Shown here: in pieces, positions 8,160 to 42,907 of the stretch
How the letters are laid out: each line of letters opens with the position of its first letter
Position numbering within the stretch: the first letter of the stretch is position 1
Origin: an uncultured Bacilli bacterium
GTDB taxonomy: Bacteria > Bacillota_I > Bacilli_A > RF39 > UBA660
Assembly (NCBI GenBank): GCA_947627225.1
Contig: CANQVB010000001.1
Location: 564 to 64,563 of the forward strand
Direction of reading: 5' to 3'
Length of the DNA stretch: 64,000 bases
Position numbers and translations under genes: made by a program
The notes under the pieces: model-generated
The model's input: the letters and a program-made list of their open reading frames with translations, nothing else
What the model was told of the DNA's origin: nothing
The model's database searches: none

Positions 8160-10589
8160 TTACACCTCTCCAATATATTTTAATAAATTTAAGAACAAGT
8201 GCATGTATTCCTTTGACAAGCCTTGTTTTTTTAATTTTCGAATTGCAATTCTTTTTTTACTAATGGTGTTCTCTCCAAAAATAATGGCTGCAATTTGCTC
8301 TTTTAAATACGTGTTAATTTGTAAGTCCATTAAAATACTATTAATATCTTCATTGATGACACGAACGGCATCAATTTCAATATCTTTTCCCTTACAATTG
8401 ATGGTAACCTGACCAATGGTTGGAACAGCAGTAAGTTCTACTAAAAAGTCATTATCTTCTACATAAGCATTCAGTGCAATCTTTTGATCATTAAAAAATG
8501 CTTCTACGGTATCTGCTTCTTTGGTATTTCGAAACCGAATTTTATAATTTCTCTCTTGTGGTGCGATTCCACTCTTACCTTCCTTAGAACGAATAATCAG
8601 CGTGTAATTATTCTGTAAGTAATTATAATCAAAATCTGTTTTTAAGTAGAAACCTTCTTTATAAAGCGAAGTCAATCCATCATCTTCATAAAGAGTATAT
8701 GTATTCGATACACCTGGGAAAATATGTACTTCCATATCAAGAGGCAGACCAACATTATTTCGATCACTTCGATTAGAAAGTGGAATAATAGCACCACTTT
8801 TTGCAAAAACAGGATATTCTTCTTCTGTATAGAAGGAAACATACTTCTTATTTCCTAAAAACTTTTTCCCTGTATTAAATTCATACCAAATTCCATCTGG
8901 AATGAAAAAGCGTTGTATCGTTCGATTCATCGTTGAATCTTTTCGTGTTAAAATAGGACAAATTAACAAAGAACTTCCAAAAAAATACTGATTCTTGTAG
9001 GATGCATCATCATATACCCATGGATACCGATAGTAAAAGGGTTCCACCAAGACCTTTCCTTCACTATAATACCGGTATGCTTCCGTGTATAAGTAAGGAA
9101 TCAAACGATGACGAAGACGCATATAGTCATTTACAATGGTTTCTGTCTTGATATCCCAAAGCCAAGGTTCTCTTTTATAATAGTTTCCTCTTGCTGCATG
9201 GAATCTAAAAATTGGACTAAAACAACCCAGTTCTACATAACGAATATAAAGTTCACTTTCTTCAATTCCTCCATGGTTTCCTCCAATATCATGACTCCAC
9301 CAAGAGACTCCAATATTCGCAGCACTTAAATTAGAAAAAGCAATATCTTCTAACCCTTGCCAAGATACCTCGCTACTTCCAGCATAAAGAATTGGATAAC
9401 AATGTCCTCTATAAAGTCCATTTCTAGAGAGAAGAAGGCTCCGTTTCGCAGGATTCCTTCCAGAATCTAAATAGAGCATCCGGTTATAAGAAAGTAGTGT
9501 ATAAGGATTTCCTTCTGCTTGATAGTCACTCCAAAAAAAATCAACGCCTAATGCTTCTAATGGATGCAAGAAAAGTTTAAAATAAACGTCCATTAACTTT
9601 GAATTCAGTGGATCGAATAAAATAATTTTATTGTTTGTAATTCCTAGATATTCACATGCTTTTTGATAATATGCTTCATGTGGGTAAATTCCAGCGGCAG
9701 GATCAATGCGAAGTCCAAGACGAATGTTTCTCTCATGCAATTTATAAATCGTATCCCCTGGATTTGGAAAAAGCGCTTGATTAAACGTAAATCCTGTTTT
9801 TAACTCTTTTAAATCTCCTACATTTCGATAATGCCAATCCTTATCCAACAAAAAAATGGCAATTGGGATTTTTCTTCGTTCAAATTGGGATGCAAGTGTT
9901 AATAGACTATTGCTATCATAAGTTTGATTTCGACACCACCAATTTCCAAGTGCATATCGTGGAAGAAGCGCAGGCATCCCTGTTAAGCGAAAATAATCTT
10001 GTAACGCAAGATGGAAATCTTTATAGTAAAGGAAAACATATATATCAAGGCCTTCTCCACTTCTGTTGGCAAGTGTCCCATCTTCCAAGAATAAAAGCGA
10101 GCGACTGTCATCAATGGATGCAAAACCATCTAAAGAATAAAGTCCCCGGTTACTTCTTCGACTGGTTTTGATGTCTTTAGAAATCATATTCCCACCAAAA
10201 TTTTTTGCTTCGGGATGTCCATAATACCAATCTCGATTATTTTCCTTAGAATTGGTTAGTAAGGTTATTTTTAAATTCTTCATCGGATCCACTTTACTTC
10301 CAGTAAAAGGAGCTTCTTTCACATAAGTGAGTTGAAAATAAGCTGTTTTTATCTCTAAAAACTTTGCATCTTGGCGAACCTCAAATTGTGGATAACCTAA
10401 ATATCTATTTTGTACCAATTGACTGGGTGCATCTACAAAAAGACCCGCCTCATTATATTCTAGGCGAACAAGACGTTCTGTTAAGACTGTAATGCGATAC
10501 TTTTTTCCTTTGAAGATACACTTTTCATCTGCAATACCCTTAGCTGTGTCAACTTCAAACTGCTTTCCTAATGGATACATCTCATTCAC
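8160..10589 (-). CDS. Glycoside hydrolase family 31 protein (alpha-glucosidase or alpha-xylosidase-like)
   Basis: The 809 aa product contains WSHDIGG followed by YIRYVELGCFSPIFRFH, the characteristic GH31 catalytic region. A GVDFFWSDYQ region is also present. Confidence 0.8.
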   Translation of the reverse strand: MNEMYPLGKQFEVDTAKGIADEKCIFKGKKYRITVLTERLVRLEYNEAGLFVDAPSQLVQNRYLGYPQFEVRQDAKFLEIKTAYFQLTYVKEAPFTGSKVDPMKNLKITLLTNSKENNRDWYYGHPEAKNFGGNMISKDIKTSRRSNRGLYSLDGFASIDDSRSLLFLEDGTLANRSGEGLDIYVFLYYKDFHLALQDYFRLTGMPALLPRYALGNWWCRNQTYDSNSLLTLASQFERRKIPIAIFLLDKDWHYRNVGDLKELKTGFTFNQALFPNPGDTIYKLHERNIRLGLRIDPAAGIYPHEAYYQKACEYLGITNNKIILFDPLNSKLMDVYFKLFLHPLEALGVDFFWSDYQAEGNPYTLLSYNRMLYLDSGRNPAKRSLLLSRNGLYRGHCYPILYAGSSEVSWQGLEDIAFSNLSAANIGVSWWSHDIGGNHGGIEESELYIRYVELGCFSPIFRFHAARGNYYKREPWLWDIKTETIVNDYMRLRHRLIPYLYTEAYRYYSEGKVLVEPFYYRYPWVYDDASYKNQYFFGSSLLICPILTRKDSTMNRTIQRFFIPDGIWYEFNTGKKFLGNKKYVSFYTEEEYPVFAKSGAIIPLSNRSDRNNVGLPLDMEVHIFPGVSNTYTLYEDDGLTSLYKEGFYLKTDFDYNYLQNNYTLIIRSKEGKSGIAPQERNYKIRFRNTKEADTVEAFFNDQKIALNAYVEDNDFLVELTAVPTIGQVTINCKGKDIEIDAVRVINEDINSILMDLQINTYLKEQIAAIIFGENTISKKRIAIRKLKKQGLSKEYMHLFLNLLKYIGEV

Positions 10590-10653
10590 CCTTCCTATTC
10601 TATTCTAGTATAAAGATACCACAAAAAAGAAAAGAAGGAAAGTATAAGTTCAT

Positions 10654-10795
10654 TTGAGTTTCGGTATTTTTTTTACAACAGTTGCAAAATTAGTCAATAA
10701 ATATCAATAGAATGCAATAAAGACAAATTGTTTAGTATCCATAACATTTTTTTATTGCTATTTCAATAATTCTATAAATTTTACCGGAACTCAAA
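10654..10795. repeat. MITE-like 142-bp element copy 1, with 13-bp imperfect terminal inverted repeats (TTGAGTTTCGGTA / TACCGGAACTCAA)
   Basis: The sequence is near-identical to copies at 12940..13081 and 13091..13233. It is flanked by the direct repeat ataagttcatttg at 10643..10655 and 10795..10807. Confidence 0.6.
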
Positions 10796-10975
10796 TAAGT
10801 TCATTTGCATTTCAGTTTAGGATACATTTAGCATAGAACTCAACCTTTCCAACTCTGTTTTTCTAACAAAAGAAAAAACCAATCTTTCAATTGATTCCTA
10901 TATCAGAAGTTCGAACAGATTCGTCAATGGTTCCCTAAAGGAAGAAGTATGACAACTTTTTGACAAAAGAAATAG

Positions 10976-11599
10976 TTAGTAATATTTTCTATCTCTTGCA
11001 TGTGCCCAAGCGTCAGCTTCTTTTCTTCTAATTCTTTTAAATTTTTTTGCTAATCTTTTATTTGCATTACTAACTTGTTTTCTTATATTGTTAGCTGAAA
11101 ATCTATAATTTGATTCAGGTAAATGAATTAAAAGGTATTTTGCATAAGATCTTAAGTAAAAATTATGGATACCCTCAATTTCGTTCATAATTTCATCTGA
11201 GTTTTCTAAAGTACATCTTTTAACAAGAGTATAACAAATTGTTTGTTCATCTTTGGTTAATTTTAATTTTGCATATTTTTGTATATCAAAGTTAGGAATG
11301 TTACTTTTGATTTTATTGAATTTTTCATGTTTTTCTAAAGTAGTTTGTCCAATACTAAAATGTCTATTTTCAACATCAGGTTTATTTCCAGTTGTTTCTT
11401 CAATAAATGAATACAAATTATTTATATTATATAAAATGAATCTATCTTCAATTAATCTATCTTTATACATCGCATTATTTAAATTAGAGGTAAAACATTC
11501 AGGCATATATTCAATCCATTTTCTTAGACTTTCAACATCTGCTAAATCAATGAAATCATCTGTACATATTGTTATCATAAAACTATTCCTTTTTTTCAA
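10976..11599 (-). CDS. Hypothetical protein (AT-rich accessory gene)
   Basis: The 207 aa ORF has no recognisable motif. Its composition is much more AT-rich than the flanking core genes. It lies between MITE copy 1 and the type I TA-like modules. Confidence 0.45.
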   Translation of the reverse strand: MKKRNSFMITICTDDFIDLADVESLRKWIEYMPECFTSNLNNAMYKDRLIEDRFILYNINNLYSFIEETTGNKPDVENRHFSIGQTTLEKHEKFNKIKSNIPNFDIQKYAKLKLTKDEQTICYTLVKRCTLENSDEIMNEIEGIHNFYLRSYAKYLLIHLPESNYRFSANNIRKQVSNANKRLAKKFKRIRRKEADAWAHARDRKYY

Positions 11600-11916
11600 A
11601 CTGTATTATATCAACACATTATTTCTAAATTTTTAAAAATTTAGAAATTTCGTGTCTTTTTGCAGTATCTATAATATCATAAAAATTTATTCTTGACAAA
11701 TCTTAGAATGTCATTTTTTTAAATACTCATTATATTTTTAACAAAACTATTATTTTAGACATGCATATTGGCTTGGCAATATGCATGTGTGTTTTCTAAA
11801 TTATCAAAATTTAATATAAAAATGATTGTGCAAGAAACAAACGTTTGATATAATTGCTTCAGGAACATTTAATAGTTGGGTGATTGCCAAACTTCATAAA
11901 GAAGGGAGGCGTTAGC

Positions 11917-12000
11917 ATGAATAAGAAGGATTTTTTAATTCTATCTTTAGTAATTCTTATCTTCCTATTAATATTACTACTATTTATAGTTTTAATATAA
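11917..12000 (+). CDS. Small hydrophobic peptide (27 aa, MNKKDFLILSLVILIFLLILLLFIVLI), putative type I toxin (module P1)
   Basis: The SD AAGGGAGG lies 8 nt upstream of the ATG. The peptide is a single predicted TM helix with a KK-D N-terminus. It has three paralogs in the window, with conserved flanks including a TATAAT -10 element upstream. Confidence 0.4.
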   Translation: MNKKDFLILSLVILIFLLILLLFIVLI

Positions 12001-12002
12001 AA

Positions 12003-12085
12003 AGAAAATCACCTAACTCAGCAATGATTTAGGTGAAACCAAAATTATATTGGCAACACTCAACATGCGATATTGAATGTTCCTT
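12003..12085 (-). ncRNA. Putative antisense sRNA (antitoxin RNA candidate) convergent to the P1 small ORF
   Basis: A minus-strand promoter-like TATAAT lies at about 12090..12095 (top-strand attata), preceded by TTGTCA. A conserved roughly 80-nt segment ends at the hairpin tcacctaa...ttaggtga (12009..12035) followed by a U tract on the minus strand. The whole arrangement is conserved in all four modules. Confidence 0.3.
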
Positions 12086-12269
12086 TTTTATTATATGCAA
12101 GTTTCCTTGACAAATACACCATAACATAAAAACGCACTTTTATCAAGTACGTTATCTATTTTTTACTCGAATTTTCCGAGTTTGGTATCTATCTGGTGGA
12201 ATTAATGAAACTAAAAACAAACTATTCTATTTTTCGTGATGGATTTCTTATCGTTGTACCACTAAATAA

Positions 12270-12492
12270 CTAAATTTTATCATAATGCGTCCACATTCTA
12301 ATCATATGAATTTCTTTTTTTTCTTCATCCACTTCACAAACAATTCGATGTTGTCTATTAATTCTTCTAGAATATAATCCTGTCAATGCCTAATTCATAA
12401 AAATAAAATATTCCTTCACTCGTAGTAGAATTATCTGGCTTGAATCTTTCAAATGTAGATAATTCTTCTTTTTTTAAGAAAATACGATTCAT
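12270..12492 (-). pseudogene. Decayed remnant of a YoeB/Txe-family type II toxin gene, with an internal stop/frameshift and no partner antitoxin gene
   Basis: The minus-strand translation gives ALTGLYSRRINRQHRIVCEVDEEKKEIHMIRMWTHYDKI, matching the YoeB C-terminal consensus (YSRRI..EHRLVY..R.HY). The N-terminal part is in another frame after a stop (MNRIFLKK...ELGIDRIIF*). No yefM/axe-like gene lies upstream. Confidence 0.5.
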
Positions 12493-12698
12493 ATATTTAT
12501 CCTTTCTGATATTTATAATAAGTATGTTATCATATTTGCCCATTGTAAAAAGACAATGGGCAAGTGTGTTTTTCTAAATTGTCACAATTTAATATAAAAG
12601 TATTGTGCCAAGAACAATTGTTTGGTATGATTATTTTAGGAACATTTGATGTTGAGTGTCTGCCTCCAATCTTTTACAAGAAAGGGGGATTGATAAAG

Positions 12699-12791
12699 AT
12701 GAAGAAAAGAATTTTTATAATAAAGATTCTTCGATACATTGCTATCATTTTATTTCTCCTATCTTTATTGGTAGCGATAATAAAAAAATGA
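12699..12791 (+). CDS. Small hydrophobic peptide (30 aa, MKKRIFIIKILRYIAIILFLLSLLVAIIKK), putative type I toxin (module P2)
   Basis: The SD AAAGGGGGA precedes the ATG. It is a paralog of the 11917..12000 peptide with a conserved upstream leader and promoter (TATGAT -10) and a conserved downstream antisense-promoter block. Confidence 0.4.
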   Translation: MKKRIFIIKILRYIAIILFLLSLLVAIIKK

Positions 12792-12875
12792 CACTCTTTC
12801 AACGCTGAACGAGTGTCGTAACTCATAATGAGGCGACATTCACTTTCGGAATTGAATGTTCCTCTTTTTTTATTT
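12781..12875 (-). ncRNA. Putative antisense sRNA convergent to the P2 small ORF
   Basis: A minus-strand -10 TAAAAT with upstream TTGTCA lies at about 12880. The transcript would end at the hairpin gacactc...gagtgtc (12790..12818), followed on the minus strand by a U tract that overlaps the sORF stop codon. Confidence 0.3.
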
Positions 12876-12939
12876 TATGCAAGTTCCCTTGACAAATACA
12901 CAATAACATAAAAAAGAACTTTTTGCAAGCTCTCTATAT

Positions 12940-13081
12940 TTGAGTTTCGGTATTTTTTTTACAACAGTTGCAAAATTAGTCAATAAATATCAATAGAATG
13001 CAATAAAGACAAATTGTTTAGTATCCATAACATTTTTTTATTGCTATTTCAATAATTCTATAAATTTTACCGGAACTCAAA
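12940..13081. repeat. MITE-like 142-bp element copy 2
   Basis: It has the same 13-bp TIRs and near-identical internal sequence as copy 1. It lies in tandem with copy 3 and is preceded by ctctatatt. Confidence 0.6.
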
Positions 13082-13090
13082 CTCTATATT

Positions 13091-13233
13091 TTGAGTTTCG
13101 GTATTTTTTTTACAACAGTTGCAAAATTAGTCAATAAATATCAATAGAATGCAATAAAGACAAATTGTTTAGTATCCATAACTTTTTTTTATTGCTATTT
13201 CAATAATTCTATAAAATTTTACCGGAACTCAAA
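13091..13233. repeat. MITE-like element copy 3, in tandem with copy 2
   Basis: It is near-identical to copies 1 and 2. The 9-bp ctctatatt precedes both tandem copies, and an imperfect tctctatatc follows copy 3. Confidence 0.6.
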
Positions 13234-13489
13234 TCTCTATATCAAAGTCCGAAAAATTTCTCAATCAACATCTACAAATTTAGTGAATGAATTGTTCTCA
13301 TATTGCATGCAAGTCGTGAACGACAAAAATGTAATGCCAGCCTCTTGTTTCGTTTATTCTCTAGACAAAGAATAAATAGATCCTATTGTTATGAACCTTT
13401 TATTCTTCTTCGTAGGAAAAAGAAGATAGGCGTTGTACTTTCCTTAGATATCAAATCTTGATAACTCGCGAACTTAACAAAAAAGGATT

Positions 13490-14632
13490 CTAGGAATTTT
13501 TTTCTAAAAACATCATGTAATATTCATCATATGTAATATTATGGTCATGAATATATTTTGCCGCCTTTATTCCAACATAGCGATAATGCCAAGCTTCACA
13601 CTTGTATCCTGTAATTTCTTCTTTTGATTTAGGATAGCGCAAAATAAAGCCATATTCGTACGCATGATCCATCATCCAGCCATATTCTTCACTTTCTACA
13701 AAAATTGAGACATCTTGGCTCGCTACATCAATACTCATTCCAGTCTGGTGTTCTGAAAAACCTGCTTTCGCAACATAGTTATCAACATAGTTTTGTCCAT
13801 AAGCTTCCCGATATAATTCCATCGTATCTAGCTGATCTTGATAACTTCGATACCCAGAATTAATTAGAATATGCTTTCCATCTTTTAAAGCTTCTTGCAT
13901 CATTCGTTTAAAAGCAGAGAGTACACTTTGATGAACCATGATTTCATCATTTTTGTTTTTCAAGTATTCGCTAGGTACCTCTTTTAATTGCTTTGGCACA
14001 AATTTTTCTGTAAGCATCCTATGTTTATTGACCAGCACATCTTCGCTAAACGTATCAATTTTGATTGGATTGGTATACTCTTCTTGATCAAAATCCATAT
14101 TGACGTGTAATACTGTCGTTTCTGCATCTTCTCGTTCTTTATCATAGTAAGCAACATAGCGATCATAGTTTTTTAATTTGGCGTAGGGAATGGAAAAATA
14201 CTGTTCTAAATATTTGACTTTTTTTCGTTTGGCAAAGGCGCTGACATCCTCGTTATTTCCATGCGCTAAAATCATAGAAATTTCATTGGCCTTATACCCT
14301 TTTTTTATCAATTTATTAATATTTTTAATCAGATCTTTTTGCTTTTGATATGTAACTTTCTTGTAGACCTGCAAATTATCTTGTACATAATCCTTACTTT
14401 CAAAAGCAGCATTCACCGTTTTATTTTCTCCAATTTCTTTCACAGCACCTATTTGCCATTTTTGAACAATGGAAGAAATGGCTTGATTACTATACCCCAA
14501 CTTTTTTAAAGAATTCTTTTCACTATTTATATAGCTAAATACAACCAAGAAAACTGCGATTACAATTCCTGCCACTTTTAATTTTTTTAATACACTTGGT
14601 TTTAACTTCCATGTTTTTTTCAAATTCTTCAC
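13490..14632 (-). CDS. Peptidase M15B family protein (D-alanyl-D-alanine carboxypeptidase, VanY-like) with an N-terminal membrane anchor
   Basis: Motifs SEHQTGMSIDVA and EAWHYRYVG with GFILRYP match the VanY/LAS metallopeptidase signature. An N-terminal TM segment is present. Confidence 0.8.
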   Translation of the reverse strand: MKNLKKTWKLKPSVLKKLKVAGIVIAVFLVVFSYINSEKNSLKKLGYSNQAISSIVQKWQIGAVKEIGENKTVNAAFESKDYVQDNLQVYKKVTYQKQKDLIKNINKLIKKGYKANEISMILAHGNNEDVSAFAKRKKVKYLEQYFSIPYAKLKNYDRYVAYYDKEREDAETTVLHVNMDFDQEEYTNPIKIDTFSEDVLVNKHRMLTEKFVPKQLKEVPSEYLKNKNDEIMVHQSVLSAFKRMMQEALKDGKHILINSGYRSYQDQLDTMELYREAYGQNYVDNYVAKAGFSEHQTGMSIDVASQDVSIFVESEEYGWMMDHAYEYGFILRYPKSKEEITGYKCEAWHYRYVGIKAAKYIHDHNITYDEYYMMFLEKNS

Positions 14633-15679: not shown

Positions 15680-16720
15680 TTATTTATGTGTTCCTAAATT
15701 ATTCTTACTACCAAGTGCATGAAAGTCAGGTATCGTTACTTCACTTGCCAATCCATCTTGAATACCAGGATTTAAGTATTCAAGTGTTTGCATACTCACT
15801 TCATTTGCTTTGGCAAAATCAGAAAGACGCATAGTCGCATCATACGGTACTTCATGCAAGTTTTCCTCTAAAACATCATTGTCAACAAGATATGGGATAA
15901 TCACTGTACCGGATGAAAAACTTTCATTATTTTCTTCTAAATCTAAGACATTTACCCCATACGTTTCGGCAATACTTTCCCAAGTTTCTAAAGCTGGATC
16001 GATAGAAACCTCTCTATAAAGATAGGTATTTTCGTCCGTTGCTATTTGATCGATTACTGCATTTAGATTCGCTGAATGATTTTCCTGTTCAGTGGTTTGT
16101 AAAAATCGAAGCTCTGCTTTGTGTTGACGATAACCCTTTATCATATTAAAACCACCTGCTACTATAAAAAGTGTAGTCGTAGCAATTGTAAGTCTTTTAA
16201 TGAGATGTCGTTTTTTCTTTTCTTTCTTTTTTTTCTTTTTAGGAGAAGCTTCCTCGACTTTTTTGCTTAATTCTTCATTACTAGCCAGTAGCTGTTTATT
16301 TTGTTCAATCAGTTTTGATAGATAGTTTTCTAAAAAAGTTTGCATGTCAGGGTTAGCTGTTTGTTTATCGGAATCAGTAGAATTTTTAGGAGGAGTTGTT
16401 TTCTCATCTTCGAAATCATCAGATTCTAAATCTTCCATATCTGAGCTTTCCGTTGGCTCTTGTGGATCAACAGTACCTTCAAAAGTCGCTACTTCCTCAT
16501 CTTCGAAATCATCAAGTTCTAAATCTTCCACATCAGAGCTATCCGTTGGCTCTTGTGGATCAACAGTACCTTCAAAAGCCGCTACTTCCTCGTCTTCGAA
16601 ATCATCAAGTTCTAAATCTTGCTCTTGTTTTTGGTTGGAATCACCTTTCCTATTTTTTCTCATCTGATTGATTTCTTCTTCCATTTCAGGATGAAGAATC
16701 TTAAAATAATCTTTTACCAT
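15680..16720 (-). CDS. Membrane-anchored protein with an acidic tandem-repeat N-terminal region and a C-terminal LysM-like domain
   Basis: The start is taken at MVKDYF, which is preceded by AGGAGA; the track ORF extends upstream to 16942. It contains 31-aa acidic repeats (LELDDFEDEEVAAFEGTVDPQEPTDSSDVED), a K-rich stop-transfer followed by a TM segment, and a LysM-like C-terminal segment. Confidence 0.55.
   Translation of the reverse strand: MVKDYFKILHPEMEEEINQMRKNRKGDSNQKQEQDLELDDFEDEEVAAFEGTVDPQEPTDSSDVEDLELDDFEDEEVATFEGTVDPQEPTESSDMEDLESDDFEDEKTTPPKNSTDSDKQTANPDMQTFLENYLSKLIEQNKQLLASNEELSKKVEEASPKKKKKKEKKKRHLIKRLTIATTTLFIVAGGFNMIKGYRQHKAELRFLQTTEQENHSANLNAVIDQIATDENTYLYREVSIDPALETWESIAETYGVNVLDLEENNESFSSGTVIIPYLVDNDVLEENLHEVPYDATMRLSDFAKANEVSMQTLEYLNPGIQDGLASEVTIPDFHALGSKNNLGTHK
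16407..16630. repeat. 93-bp tandem repeat, about 2.4 copies, inside the CDS
   Basis: Near-identical units start at 16407, 16500 and 16593 (tcttcgaaatcatca...gctacttcctc). They encode the acidic 31-aa repeat. Confidence 0.8.
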
Positions 16721-16880
16721 ACATTCTCTCCTATTTGCGCATATTGTAGCATATTTCCTAAAAAATGACAAGTACCGCCATTTTCTAGACAAAAAAACCG
16801 AATTTTCCTTGTTTCTTAAAAAAACATATATTATAATGAATATAAAGTAGAAGAGCGTAGTAAAATGGATGGTGATTGAA

Positions 16881-17585
16881 ATGGATAATAAAACAAGAAT
16901 GATCACAGTGGCAACCTTTGCCTTTCTTGGTGTGTATTGCATTACATGTGGTGCACTCTATCCACAGTATCAGCAAGCGCGTACACCGAAGACAGCCTTT
17001 CTATTAGTCGAACAAAAACAAATTGGTATCAAAAAAGAAGTCAACCTCAAATTAAAAGAAATGACTACAGAAGTGAATGTACCGCTTTCTGTTAAAATCG
17101 TAGATTATTTAGAAGAACCTGTCTCTAATGAAGTGCTTGCTGCATTAAAACTAGATACAAGTAGTGTCAATGTACAACAACCTGGCGAATATAAATACCA
17201 TATCTATTATAAAAAGAAAGTCTTTGAAGGAAAAGTGATTGTCAAAGAAAAAGCAGTCACACAACCCATTGTACAACAAACCATTACATTAAAATCTGTA
17301 ACCATCAAATTAGGAGAATTATTATCTACAGATTTGTCAACCTATATTATTGAGCCATTAACAGAAGAACAAAAACAAAAAATGATATTGGACCTTACTC
17401 GAGTAAACCCAAATAAAGCAGGTAAATATACGTATACAATTTCCTATGATGGTGCTTATTATCAAGGAGAACTCATCATTATAGAAGATCAAAAAATAGT
17501 AGAAAATGTTCCGGGAGATAACAGTAGTACAACAGAACAAGGAAAAGAAAAGACGGAGGAAAGTCAAACAAGTTCAAACCCTTAA
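16881..17585 (+). CDS. Hypothetical membrane-anchored protein with two internal repeat domains of about 60 aa
   Basis: The start is taken at MDNKTRM, which is followed by an N-terminal TM segment. Two related segments contain PGEYKYHIYYKKKVFEGKVIV and AGKYTYTISYDGAYYQGELIII. Confidence 0.45.
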   Translation: MDNKTRMITVATFAFLGVYCITCGALYPQYQQARTPKTAFLLVEQKQIGIKKEVNLKLKEMTTEVNVPLSVKIVDYLEEPVSNEVLAALKLDTSSVNVQQPGEYKYHIYYKKKVFEGKVIVKEKAVTQPIVQQTITLKSVTIKLGELLSTDLSTYIIEPLTEEQKQKMILDLTRVNPNKAGKYTYTISYDGAYYQGELIIIEDQKIVENVPGDNSSTTEQGKEKTEESQTSSNP

Positions 17586-39424: not shown

Positions 39425-39698
39425 AAACCCTCCTAATTAGCCATAACATAAATCTATGGCATTTCTTTTTAAATATCAATGTATTTTTGTATACGTTATT
39501 TTTTGATTTTTATAGGATAATACTATATAGTCCACATAGTCTTCATTGTTTTCAAGCCTACAACCATATTGCTTGGATTCCTATTTGCTCTCTTTATTAT
39601 TTTTTCCTTTTTCTATATTTTAACATCGCCCCCAAAAAAATTTTACTACTGCTTTTGTTACAACATTATAGCACGGCTTTTTTAAGATGTAAACTTAT

Positions 39699-39725
39699 TT
39701 GAGTTTCGGTTTTTTACGAAGAAAT
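39699..39725. repeat. Solo left end of the MITE-like element (ttgagtttcggt...)
   Basis: The sequence tatttgagtttcggttttttacgaa matches the left TIR and the adjacent 12 bp of the 142-bp element. Confidence 0.4.
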
Positions 39726-39774: not shown

Positions 39775-41305
39775 TTCCTATAAAACTTAAACTATCATGG
39801 ATAGATAGATTTTACACAGAAATTTTTACACTCTCTATTAATGCTCAATATCATCTTTTTTATTTTCATTTAAAACTTTTTCTACTTCACTAATTAATTG
39901 TTCTTTATCAGGAATATAGTAAGTATAAGTAGAAGCAAAAATATTATTGGATAAGCCACCTAAAGCAAACTCTAACATTATATTATCTTTTTCAGCACAT
40001 AAAATGATACCAATAGGTTTTCCATCATCTTCTGAATTTACAACTTGTTCGTAATAGTTTAAATACAAATTCATTTGTCCTAGATTTTCTGCTTTAAGAT
40101 TATTCATTTTCAAATCAATTAGTACATATGATTTTAAAAATTTATTATAAAATACCATATCGACATAATAGTCTGTATTATTAAGTGTAATTCTTTGTTG
40201 TGTTCCTACAAACATAAACCCTTTACCAAGTTCAAGTAAAAAATCTTCAATGTGTCTTATTAGTTTATATTCCAAATCTTTTTCTAAAATTGGCTTTTGC
40301 TCTTTGATTCCAAGAAATTCAAAAACATAAGGTTGTTTAACAATATCACTAGGTTTATTTAAAATTTGACCTTCTTTTGATAACGCTAAAACTTTTTCTT
40401 TATTAACTTGACCATCTGAAAGAAGCAATCTTTCAAATAATGAAGTATCTAATTGTCTTTTTAATTCTCTTACAGACCAATTTGAATTAATACATTCTTT
40501 TTCATAAAAATTACGTTTATCTTTGTCCTTAATAATCATTAATTCACAATAATGTGACCAACTTAATTTTTCATTTAATTTCTCAAAATTTGGATAAACT
40601 TTATAGAAAACTCTCATATATTTTAAATTAGATATAGAATATCCTTTTCCTAAATATTTAGTAAGTTCATCTGATAAGCCTTTTAAAATTTCTTTGCCAT
40701 ATTCTAATCGGTTGTTAAATTCATTTTCATTTGAGACTATTATTCTTCCTATATTCCAATACACATAAATAATAGATTTATTGATCTCATTAGCTAAATT
40801 AGATCTAACTTCTTCTACTAAATTAGTAATTTCTTGAATCATTTTATTGTTGCGTTTTTCTAGCATAATTGCTCCTTTCTAAATTAGTCAGACGCGTCTG
40901 GCCAATCTTTTTTTATTTAAAATTTTAATAATATTTTATCATATAAATTGCTAAATGGTGTTAATATGAGTTAATTTTTCGATTGTTTTGTTTATGACAA
41001 AATTATTAACCCCTAGGAATTTTGACAAATATATCAAAATAATCCTATGTGGATTTTATTGAAATAAAAAATCATCTCATTTAGAGATGAAATATATTTG
41101 AATGTTCAAAAAGTTCGAACAGATTCGCTAGTGGAGCGAATGCTTGTTAGGCTATGAACACCCAACAAACATAAAATCCATAATTATTTGATGTTACAGT
41201 TCAGATGGAATACAACAAAAATTAGGTAGAAATTAGCTTATCCAAAGTCTGTAAAAAAATCTGTGTAAAATCTATCTATCCCTGATAGATTCAGTTTTAT
41301 AGGAA
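39775..41305. mobile_element. 1.53-kb cassette bounded by 57-bp imperfect inverted repeats (about 52/57 identical) and carrying a single DUF1016/YhcG-type gene
   Basis: Left IR at 39775..39831 is ttcctataaaacttaaactatcatggatagatagattttacacagaaatttttacac. The reverse complement of 41249..41305 is ttcctataaaactgaatctatcagggatagatagattttacacagatttttttacag. Confidence 0.4.
39838..40866 (-). CDS. PD-(D/E)xK nuclease domain protein, DUF1016/YhcG family
   Basis: The N-terminal region IYVYWNIGRII...EYGKEILKGLSDELT...GKGYSISNLKYMRVFY and the C-terminal YVDMVFYNKFLKSYVLIDLKMNNLKAENLGQMNLYLNYY are collinear with YhcG-like proteins. Confidence 0.75.
   Translation of the reverse strand: MLEKRNNKMIQEITNLVEEVRSNLANEINKSIIYVYWNIGRIIVSNENEFNNRLEYGKEILKGLSDELTKYLGKGYSISNLKYMRVFYKVYPNFEKLNEKLSWSHYCELMIIKDKDKRNFYEKECINSNWSVRELKRQLDTSLFERLLLSDGQVNKEKVLALSKEGQILNKPSDIVKQPYVFEFLGIKEQKPILEKDLEYKLIRHIEDFLLELGKGFMFVGTQQRITLNNTDYYVDMVFYNKFLKSYVLIDLKMNNLKAENLGQMNLYLNYYEQVVNSEDDGKPIGIILCAEKDNIMLEFALGGLSNNIFASTYTYYIPDKEQLISEVEKVLNENKKDDIEH

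Positions 41306-41371: not shown

Positions 41372-42907
<1,536 letters not shown>

Follow-up and report, generated by a model that had tools for sequence, protein, structure and literature searches.

Evidence for a previously undescribed MITE family in uncultured gut Bacilli

Introduction

How did three near-identical sequences of about 143 bp come to lie within 2.6 kb of one another in the genome of an uncultured gut bacterium, two of them almost side by side? The question is raised by a 64,000-nucleotide stretch of contig CANQVB010000001.1 (assembly GCA_947627225.1), analysed here in its entirety and referred to as the window, which derives from an uncultured member of the Bacilli. An earlier reading made from the DNA letters alone (the sequence-only reading) had pointed to a novel element resembling a MITE (miniature inverted-repeat transposable element), and had proposed that it is mobilised in trans or has a structural or regulatory role, such as that of an outward promoter or small RNA (sRNA). 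Here we report that the three copies, designated W1, W2 and W3, are in all likelihood members of a MITE family that has recently spread between uncultured gut bacteria. The family is previously undescribed and is a well-known kind of selfish DNA. Examples of such elements in prokaryotes include MITEAba12 of Acinetobacter, with 1-22 copies per genome, Chunjie of Geobacter and QMITE1/2 of Coxiella (Minnick 2024, PMC10969869).

Results

Three copies with matching ends

All three copies lie on the + strand: W1 at 10653-10795 (143 bp; nhmmer E=8e-33), W2 at 12939-13081 (also 143 bp, with no difference from W1) and W3 at 13090-13233 (144 bp), in which a single base is substituted and an additional A is present relative to the other two. 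The existence of three near-identical copies of roughly 142 bp was therefore correctly perceived, at coordinates that shift by 1-2 nt once the element boundaries (TTTGAG...CTCAAA) are set by family-wide comparison of flanks. With these boundaries the terminal inverted repeats (TIRs), previously taken as 13 bp with one mismatch, are real and 14 bp long, TTTGAGTTTCGGTA / TACCGGAACTCAAA, located in W1 at 10653-10666 and 10782-10795; they are complementary at 13 of 14 positions in the window copies and at all 14 in L003, L006 and L009 (L numbers denote the collected contigs and loci from other assemblies). In the window, the 21-mer left end has 3 matches where 0.01 are expected, and a 13-mer end with at most two mismatches has 8 where 1.9 are expected. 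A family profile search of the 64-kb window found no copy beyond W1-W3.

The copies are contained in a lineage-specific AT-rich islet of 2,856 bp (10643-13498) upstream of a GH31 gene, an islet already remarked upon in the sequence-only reading and borne out by its base composition (26.6% GC against 33.1% for the window); the element itself has 23% GC. The element had been considered too short to encode a protein, and no credible open reading frame (ORF) is found inside any copy, the sole overlap being a spurious 37-aa minus-strand ORF that leaves W2 (12870-12983).

Target-site duplications and dispersal among genomes

A mark of mobility is found immediately outside the ends. With boundaries fixed, exact flanking direct repeats of 7-10 bp (mode 8) occur in 12 of 15 independent insertions, against a background of 0.125% per site at random positions of the same DNA (P about 7e-33). 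For W1 this target-site duplication (TSD) is the 8-bp TAAGTTCA, at 10645-10652 and 10796-10803; the 13-bp direct repeat previously reported around this copy is a genuine flanking repeat, of which only these 8 bp are TSD, the remainder being bases of the element.

Species-representative genomes were scanned for both TIRs, exact and 100-130 nt apart, with a pattern fixing 13 nt. Complete copies were found on 10 contigs from 9 other species-level gut metagenome-assembled genomes (MAGs), labelled uncultured Bacilli, Tenericutes or Clostridia, several of them from rabbit gut and two of the contigs (L005 and L008) belonging to one MAG. A scan of metagenomes for one end returned 79 loci, only three of which (L056, L083 and L084, with mouse gut among the sources) are real; the other 76 are chance occurrences of the 19-mer TTTGAGTTTCGGT[AT]TTTTT in unrelated contigs (within L011-L089) ranging from 22% to 65% GC. 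They serve as a calibration: in databases of very large size, a solitary match as long as a TIR carries little meaning.

In addition to the three window copies, there are at least 13 loci in other genomes, with identities to W1 of 73-98.6%. All 13 other insertions are outside long annotated genes, in unrelated flanks and in both orientations relative to neighbouring genes, the copy in L002 interrupting a 37-aa ORF that belongs to the truncated remnant of a second element, X, described below. The search across genomes, on which the sequence-only reading had hinged the choice between a dispersed element and purely local copies, returned copies at unrelated sites, most with TSDs of their own. An empty site is also available: the sister-strain contig L118 lacks the element beside a YitT gene whose product shares 99% identity with its L008 counterpart.

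Between genomes the MITE is 95-98.6% identical, whereas the syntenic coding and flanking DNA of the same genomes is only 66-85% identical. Since a non-coding element is far more alike than syntenic coding DNA, recent horizontal spread is indicated rather than vertical inheritance, and on these comparisons the family is, as it appears, recently active and horizontally spread among uncultured gut Bacilli.

The element was called novel from the outset, and nothing in the searches speaks otherwise. Queried with the element, plasmid and phage collections gave no match in BLASTN distant mode, and a literature search by TIR sequence led to unrelated primers only, so that no sequence similarity to any record was found in these collections or the literature. 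Rfam gave no match at gathering score anywhere in the window, nor, within 10400-13600, any match at E<=1, and viral contigs searched with both-TIR, one-end and X patterns gave nothing or chance matches only.

A tandem pair formed by two insertions

W2 and W3, which follow one another with a period of 151, stand in the order ...GCAAGC, TCTCTATA, W2, CTCTATAT, W3, TCTCTATAT, CAAAG. The left flank of the pair, TCTCTATA (12931-12938), matches the right flank at 13234-13241; the 8-bp spacer CTCTATAT occupies 13082-13089; and the full right flank TCTCTATAT (13234-13242) is the putative 9-bp TSD of W3. The sequence ctctatatt had been described as both flanking and separating the copies: the flanks are real, but with corrected boundaries they read TCTCTATA(T), and the spacer is CTCTATAT.

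Two successive insertions into one 9-bp site reproduce this arrangement exactly. W3 would have inserted first, duplicating TCTCTATAT, and W2 would then have entered the left copy of TCTCTATAT, 1 bp from the W3 terminus, duplicating CTCTATA; the spacer would be the remnant of the left TSD of W3, re-duplicated by the insertion of W2. A fresh tandem duplication is disfavoured because W2 is identical to the distant W1 and differs from the adjacent W3, the opposite of what such an event would leave. Unequal crossing-over between TSD copies is likewise disfavoured, as it predicts the 9-nt spacer TCTCTATAT and not the 8-nt CTCTATAT that is present. As read from the sequence, the pair is the outcome of two insertions and not of local duplication, with W3 the probable earlier arrival.

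Abutting insertions are seen at 4 of about 15 loci (the window, L008, L056 and L002), which suggests a preference for insertion against resident ends. In L008, a foreign right end is followed by an 8-bp spacer and the MITE; in L056, a 195-bp variant with its own 9-bp TSD, GATTTATTC, stands flush against a foreign right end, that of X; and in L002, three copies of the 10-bp site TTATGCTTAT alternate with two elements, in the order site, 237-bp fragment, site, MITE, site. In three of the four abutting loci the junction of right end and left end consists of TACCGGAACTCAAA, a spacer of 8-9 nt, TTTGAGTTTCGGTA and a T-run, which in the window is T8. At the W2/W3 junction (13068-13111, + strand) a hairpin is listed by the terminator scan: the right TIR of W2 and the left TIR of W3, together with the spacer between them, supply its 14-bp stem and 8-nt loop, and T8 follows; it resembles an intrinsic terminator and may act as one.

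Conserved ends and a variable interior

An alignment of 14 non-redundant members shows that about 20 terminal nucleotides are conserved at each end, beyond the 13 set by the search pattern, while the interior falls to about 70% identity and divides the family into at least three subfamilies. Conservation is strong, however, at a motif in the centre of the interior, ATTGTTTAG[T/C]AT, whose ATTGTTT core is invariant; in W1 this motif reads ATTGTTTAGTAT (10727-10738, + strand), and its other five positions are mostly conserved in all subfamilies. A TIR-closed stem-loop is predicted in 8 members covering all subfamilies (z = -3.3 to -6.6), with inner stems that differ, and in RNAalifold the TIR stem is the sole consensus helix, without compensatory changes and with no covarying internal helix.

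The two internal features noted in the sequence-only reading fare less well. The 8-bp stem GCAATAAA (10714-10721) / TTTATTGC (10751-10758), given here by its position in W1, is indeed present in the window copies but is subfamily-specific and not kept across the family. Of the supposed promoter, a TTGCAA followed after 17 nt by a second hexamer, the latter is CAATAG, which matches TATAAT at 2 of 6 positions, and the site is unlisted by the promoter scan. No promoter or terminator is conserved within single copies, and an outward or junction promoter was rejected since no sigma-70-like site is conserved; an integration host factor (IHF) site was also considered, of which only an ATCAA half-site is present. 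The stem and the promoter-like stretch, neither of which is conserved across the family, thus appear to be subfamily-specific filler and lend no support to the sRNA or outward-promoter role that had been suggested.

A candidate partner element

None of 20 window ORFs matches a transposase in Pfam, and no protein resembling that of an insertion sequence (IS) is shared among the 13 MITE loci, whose ORFs were compared all against all. As there is no ORF in any copy and no transposase was found nearby, the element is probably mobilised in trans by an IS-like partner, and the earlier suggestion of mobilisation in trans stands as a reasonable reading.

The foreign ends of L008 and L056 are homologous to each other over 37 nt and define X, which shares only its terminal 17-25 nt with the MITE; relative to this candidate, the restriction of similarity to those terminal nucleotides would make the element a 'type II' MITE. 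Reading inward, X presents a TIR, a hairpin and a TATAAT box, to which the truncated L002 copy adds a GGAGG ribosome-binding site (RBS) and an ATG, the ORF opening with MNNFTTNTYEVKRDILNFSKKISEGL. Insertion sequences are so arranged at their transposase-proximal end, and X is a candidate partner. Contigs from four assemblies stop 55, 55, 77, 87 and 123 nt into X, as expected of a multi-copy repeat longer than the assembly k-mer, and walking into X through homologues of neighbouring genes extended it from 55-77 nt to 123 nt, with every contig ending inside X. X is accordingly seen as 123 nt of end and a truncated 237-bp version. Its 29-aa N-terminus has no meaningful match in Pfam, NCBIfam or plasmids, and the X fragment, compared with plasmid and phage collections in BLASTN distant mode, gave only a 41-nt chance match. 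One further locus, L072, was considered as an IS end with promoter and rejected, being an ABC-transporter gene.

Two relatives of these elements deserve description in their own right. In L002 (2506-2915; OZ007038.1), the 237-bp X-like fragment has a degenerate TIR, TTTAAGTTCCGGTG, with hairpin, promoter and ORF start; its far end has no recognisable TIR, yet an intact site copy is present there, which is unexplained. The 195-bp variant, at 65-259 of L056 and also in L123, L125 and L126 (mouse gut), has the same ends as the MITE with one TIR mismatch and an unrelated interior that includes a perfect hairpin, AACAATAACAGTTCA/TGAACTGTTATTGTT; sharing of the ends implies that they mobilise more than one kind of cargo.

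The proposed mechanism is as follows. A DDE-type transposase of a longer partner element, acting in trans, would recognise the 14-bp termini TTTGAGTTYCGGTA, and a staggered cut of about 8 bp (7-10) in AT-rich intergenic DNA would produce the TSD; by this route the element would have entered the 2.9-kb islet at least three times. It is the TSDs that point to DDE chemistry, and their length of 7-10 bp (mode 8) cannot by itself discriminate among the families known for duplications of 8-9 bp, namely IS256, ISL3, IS1595, IS6, IS66, ISAs1, IS4 and others.

The islet and its contents

The islet is absent between the VanY-like and GH31 genes in L108, L112/L113 and L114-L117, and in relatives these genes are adjacent, 75-280 bp apart, or separated by one different small or 403-aa gene. 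The VanY-GH31 junction is variable in general, comprising 75-80 bp in L108 and L112, a 67-aa ORF in L114-L117, a 403-aa gene in L111 and the 2.9-kb islet here. W1 stands 64 bp upstream of the start codon of GH31 and about 10 bp inside the left islet edge; W3 is 265 bp inside the right one. The roughly 62 bp directly upstream of GH31 are conserved with L108 and intact, and of the VanY terminator hairpin of L108 the 3' arm survives beside W1, the 5' arm being gone. A composite transposon bounded by the MITEs was rejected, as the islet edges are outside W1 and W3 and W1 has its own TSD on both sides.

Besides the MITEs, the islet contains an ORF of 207 aa on the minus strand (10976-11599), for which Pfam, PADLOC and PHROG give no match, a pseudogene fragment of a YoeB-toxin C-terminus (12270-12386, minus strand; Pfam E=3.8e-6) and two repeats of about 375 bp (11777-12147 and 12554-12929) that are 76-88% identical. 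Each of the latter has a strong hairpin, an RBS and a hydrophobic ORF of 27-30 aa (MNKKDFLILSLVILIFLLILLLFIVLI; MKKRIFIIKILRYIAIILFLLSLLVAIIKK), and judged by this layout they look like type I toxin genes; Rfam found no antitoxin RNA. Beyond the islet, a 420-aa ORF (15680-16942, minus strand) combines a lysine-rich stretch with acidic repeats in tandem (DDFEDEEVA[A/T]FEGTVDPQEPT...), and its L108 orthologue has only a faint LysM match.

A probable solo end

A 27-bp fragment of the left end had been noted near 39699. An exact 14-mer, ATTTGAGTTTCGGT, is indeed found at 39697-39710, followed by a T-run (0 matches in 100 shuffles; analytic expectation about 1e-3), and the probable solo left end, TTTGAGTTTCGGT and then the T-run, spans 39698-39716 on the + strand, with no element body and no right end. 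The resemblance goes no further: the family profile scores 5.9 bits, and no right end occurs on either side of the neighbouring YhcG cassette. The sequence is probably a relic MITE end, to judge from the exact match. That the cassette had split a MITE copy at 39698 was rejected, there being no right end or body beyond it. The cassette is a 1.5-kb segment (39775-41305) with 56-nt inverted repeats, 91% complementary, between which the minus strand encodes a PDDEXK nuclease of the YhcG/DUF1016 kind (39838-40866) that matches PDC-S02, a candidate defence family in PADLOC, at E=9e-128; just past the cassette, a 500-aa ORF (41372-42874, minus strand) has long collagen-like G-X-Y repeats alternating with a repeat of about 40 aa.

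Discussion

The element shows the features by which prokaryotic MITEs are recognised: a length below 500 bp, TIRs, TSDs, multicopy dispersal, AT-rich sites, a stem-loop and mobility polymorphism (PMC10969869). Its TIRs fall in the usual range of 4-30 bp, its position is intergenic, it has no ORF, and the copy number of such elements is variable and sometimes low; it differs in its hosts, which are uncultured gut Bacilli and 'Tenericutes' MAGs.

We consider it very probable that W1-W3 are copies of such a family, and several points weigh against this. The copies per genome are few (1-3), a lower bound because both TIRs had to be exact. Three insertions (L003, L008 and L083) have no clean TSD, and TSD length varies from 7 to 10 bp, a variation to which T/A-rich termini may contribute by blurring the exact boundary. 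No transposase with matching ends was recovered that would demonstrate mobilisation in trans or the IS family, and X could be another short non-autonomous element. The invariant central motif, finally, is unexplained by a purely selfish model.

It is to this motif that a more novel reading appeals. Under it, the transposase would be of an undescribed type that preferentially integrates flush against resident ends, and the terminator-like hairpins at junctions and the central motif would be selected for transcriptional insulation; motif and hairpins would then insulate the element or neighbouring genes and not be accidents. We regard this as unlikely.

A structured non-coding or cis-regulatory RNA (an sRNA, riboswitch, or terminator or insulator cassette) spread by selection, in which TIR stem and motif are functional, would account for the stable fold predicted in every member, the strong conservation of the motif and the terminator-like hairpins of abutting ends; some bacterial MITEs are reported to yield sRNAs, and SPRITE elements have terminator-like sequences (PMC10969869). 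Against it, the absence of Rfam matches extends to E<=1, no consensus helix exists apart from the TIR stem, which shows no covariation, single copies have no conserved promoter or terminator and lie in both orientations relative to genes, and the TSDs are explained by transposition alone. An RNA role would be at most secondary and exapted, and as a primary explanation it is improbable.

More doubtful still is the reading that the element derives, as a non-autonomous form, from a mobile element of non-DDE type, for example as a palindrome-associated transposable element (PATE) of the IS200/IS605 type, a REP/RAYT unit, or the site of an integron or recombinase. Its small size, AT-richness, hairpin formation and intergenic position agree with this; such systems, however, are without 7-10 bp TSDs and matching TIRs, both of which it has, and no Y1 or serine/tyrosine recombinase gene is nearby. 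Finally, the non-mobile local duplication of a promoter or regulatory region, to which three copies within 2.6 kb, two of them adjacent, and none elsewhere in the window might point, is refuted by the distribution across genomes, since no fewer than 12 further genomes or contigs carry copies at unrelated sites with TSDs of their own, and we give it practically no credence.

As members of a MITE family, the copies can be compared with better-known small repeats. Streptococcus pneumoniae has RUP, of about 107 bp, which duplicates TA and whose ends are of the IS630 type, and the modular BOX, which lacks classical TIRs and TSDs. RUP, BOX and SPRITE share with the present element their small size, a low-GC Gram-positive host and mutual insertion; the element differs in its TSD of about 8 bp and in a terminator-like structure that occurs only at two-element junctions. 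The S. pneumoniae repeats are found in clusters, inserted within or beside each other, and SPRITE has a sequence resembling a Rho-independent terminator (PMC10969869). The Correia element (NEMIS) of Neisseria is alike in being a MITE of about 100-200 bp with TIRs, intergenic near genes and folding into a hairpin. Its TIRs are 26 bp long, it duplicates TA, and it carries outward promoters as well as an IHF site. The element described here has neither a full IHF consensus nor a conserved promoter, and far fewer copies.

Insertion sequences of the copy-out-paste-in families (IS30, IS911/IS3, IS21 and IS256) direct insertion to inverted repeats and form head-to-tail (IS)2 junctions. The abutting loci recall these in that the right end of one element abuts the left end of the next across a spacer of about TSD length at three of the four independent loci, the exception being L002, where no TIR is recognisable at the abutting X end. 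Unlike such junctions, those in L056 and L002 have an incoming element with its own TSD copy on both sides, and no junction promoter is evident. The TSD copies on both sides indicate ordinary insertion beside a resident end and not a dimer or circle.

This family leaves the general understanding of MITEs unchanged, and its features are only mildly unusual, namely end-adjacent insertion with terminator-like junctions and a conserved central motif; the former offers a small, testable point on target choice. The findings provide a mobile-element family, defined by a consensus sequence, ends of 14 bp and a roughly 8-bp TSD, for poorly studied uncultured gut Bacilli, the hosts being 'Tenericutes'/RF39-like MAGs of rabbit and mouse gut. 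In short-read MAGs the element is a practical source of contig breaks and mis-joins, and its near-identity across species marks recent horizontal exchange within that gut community.

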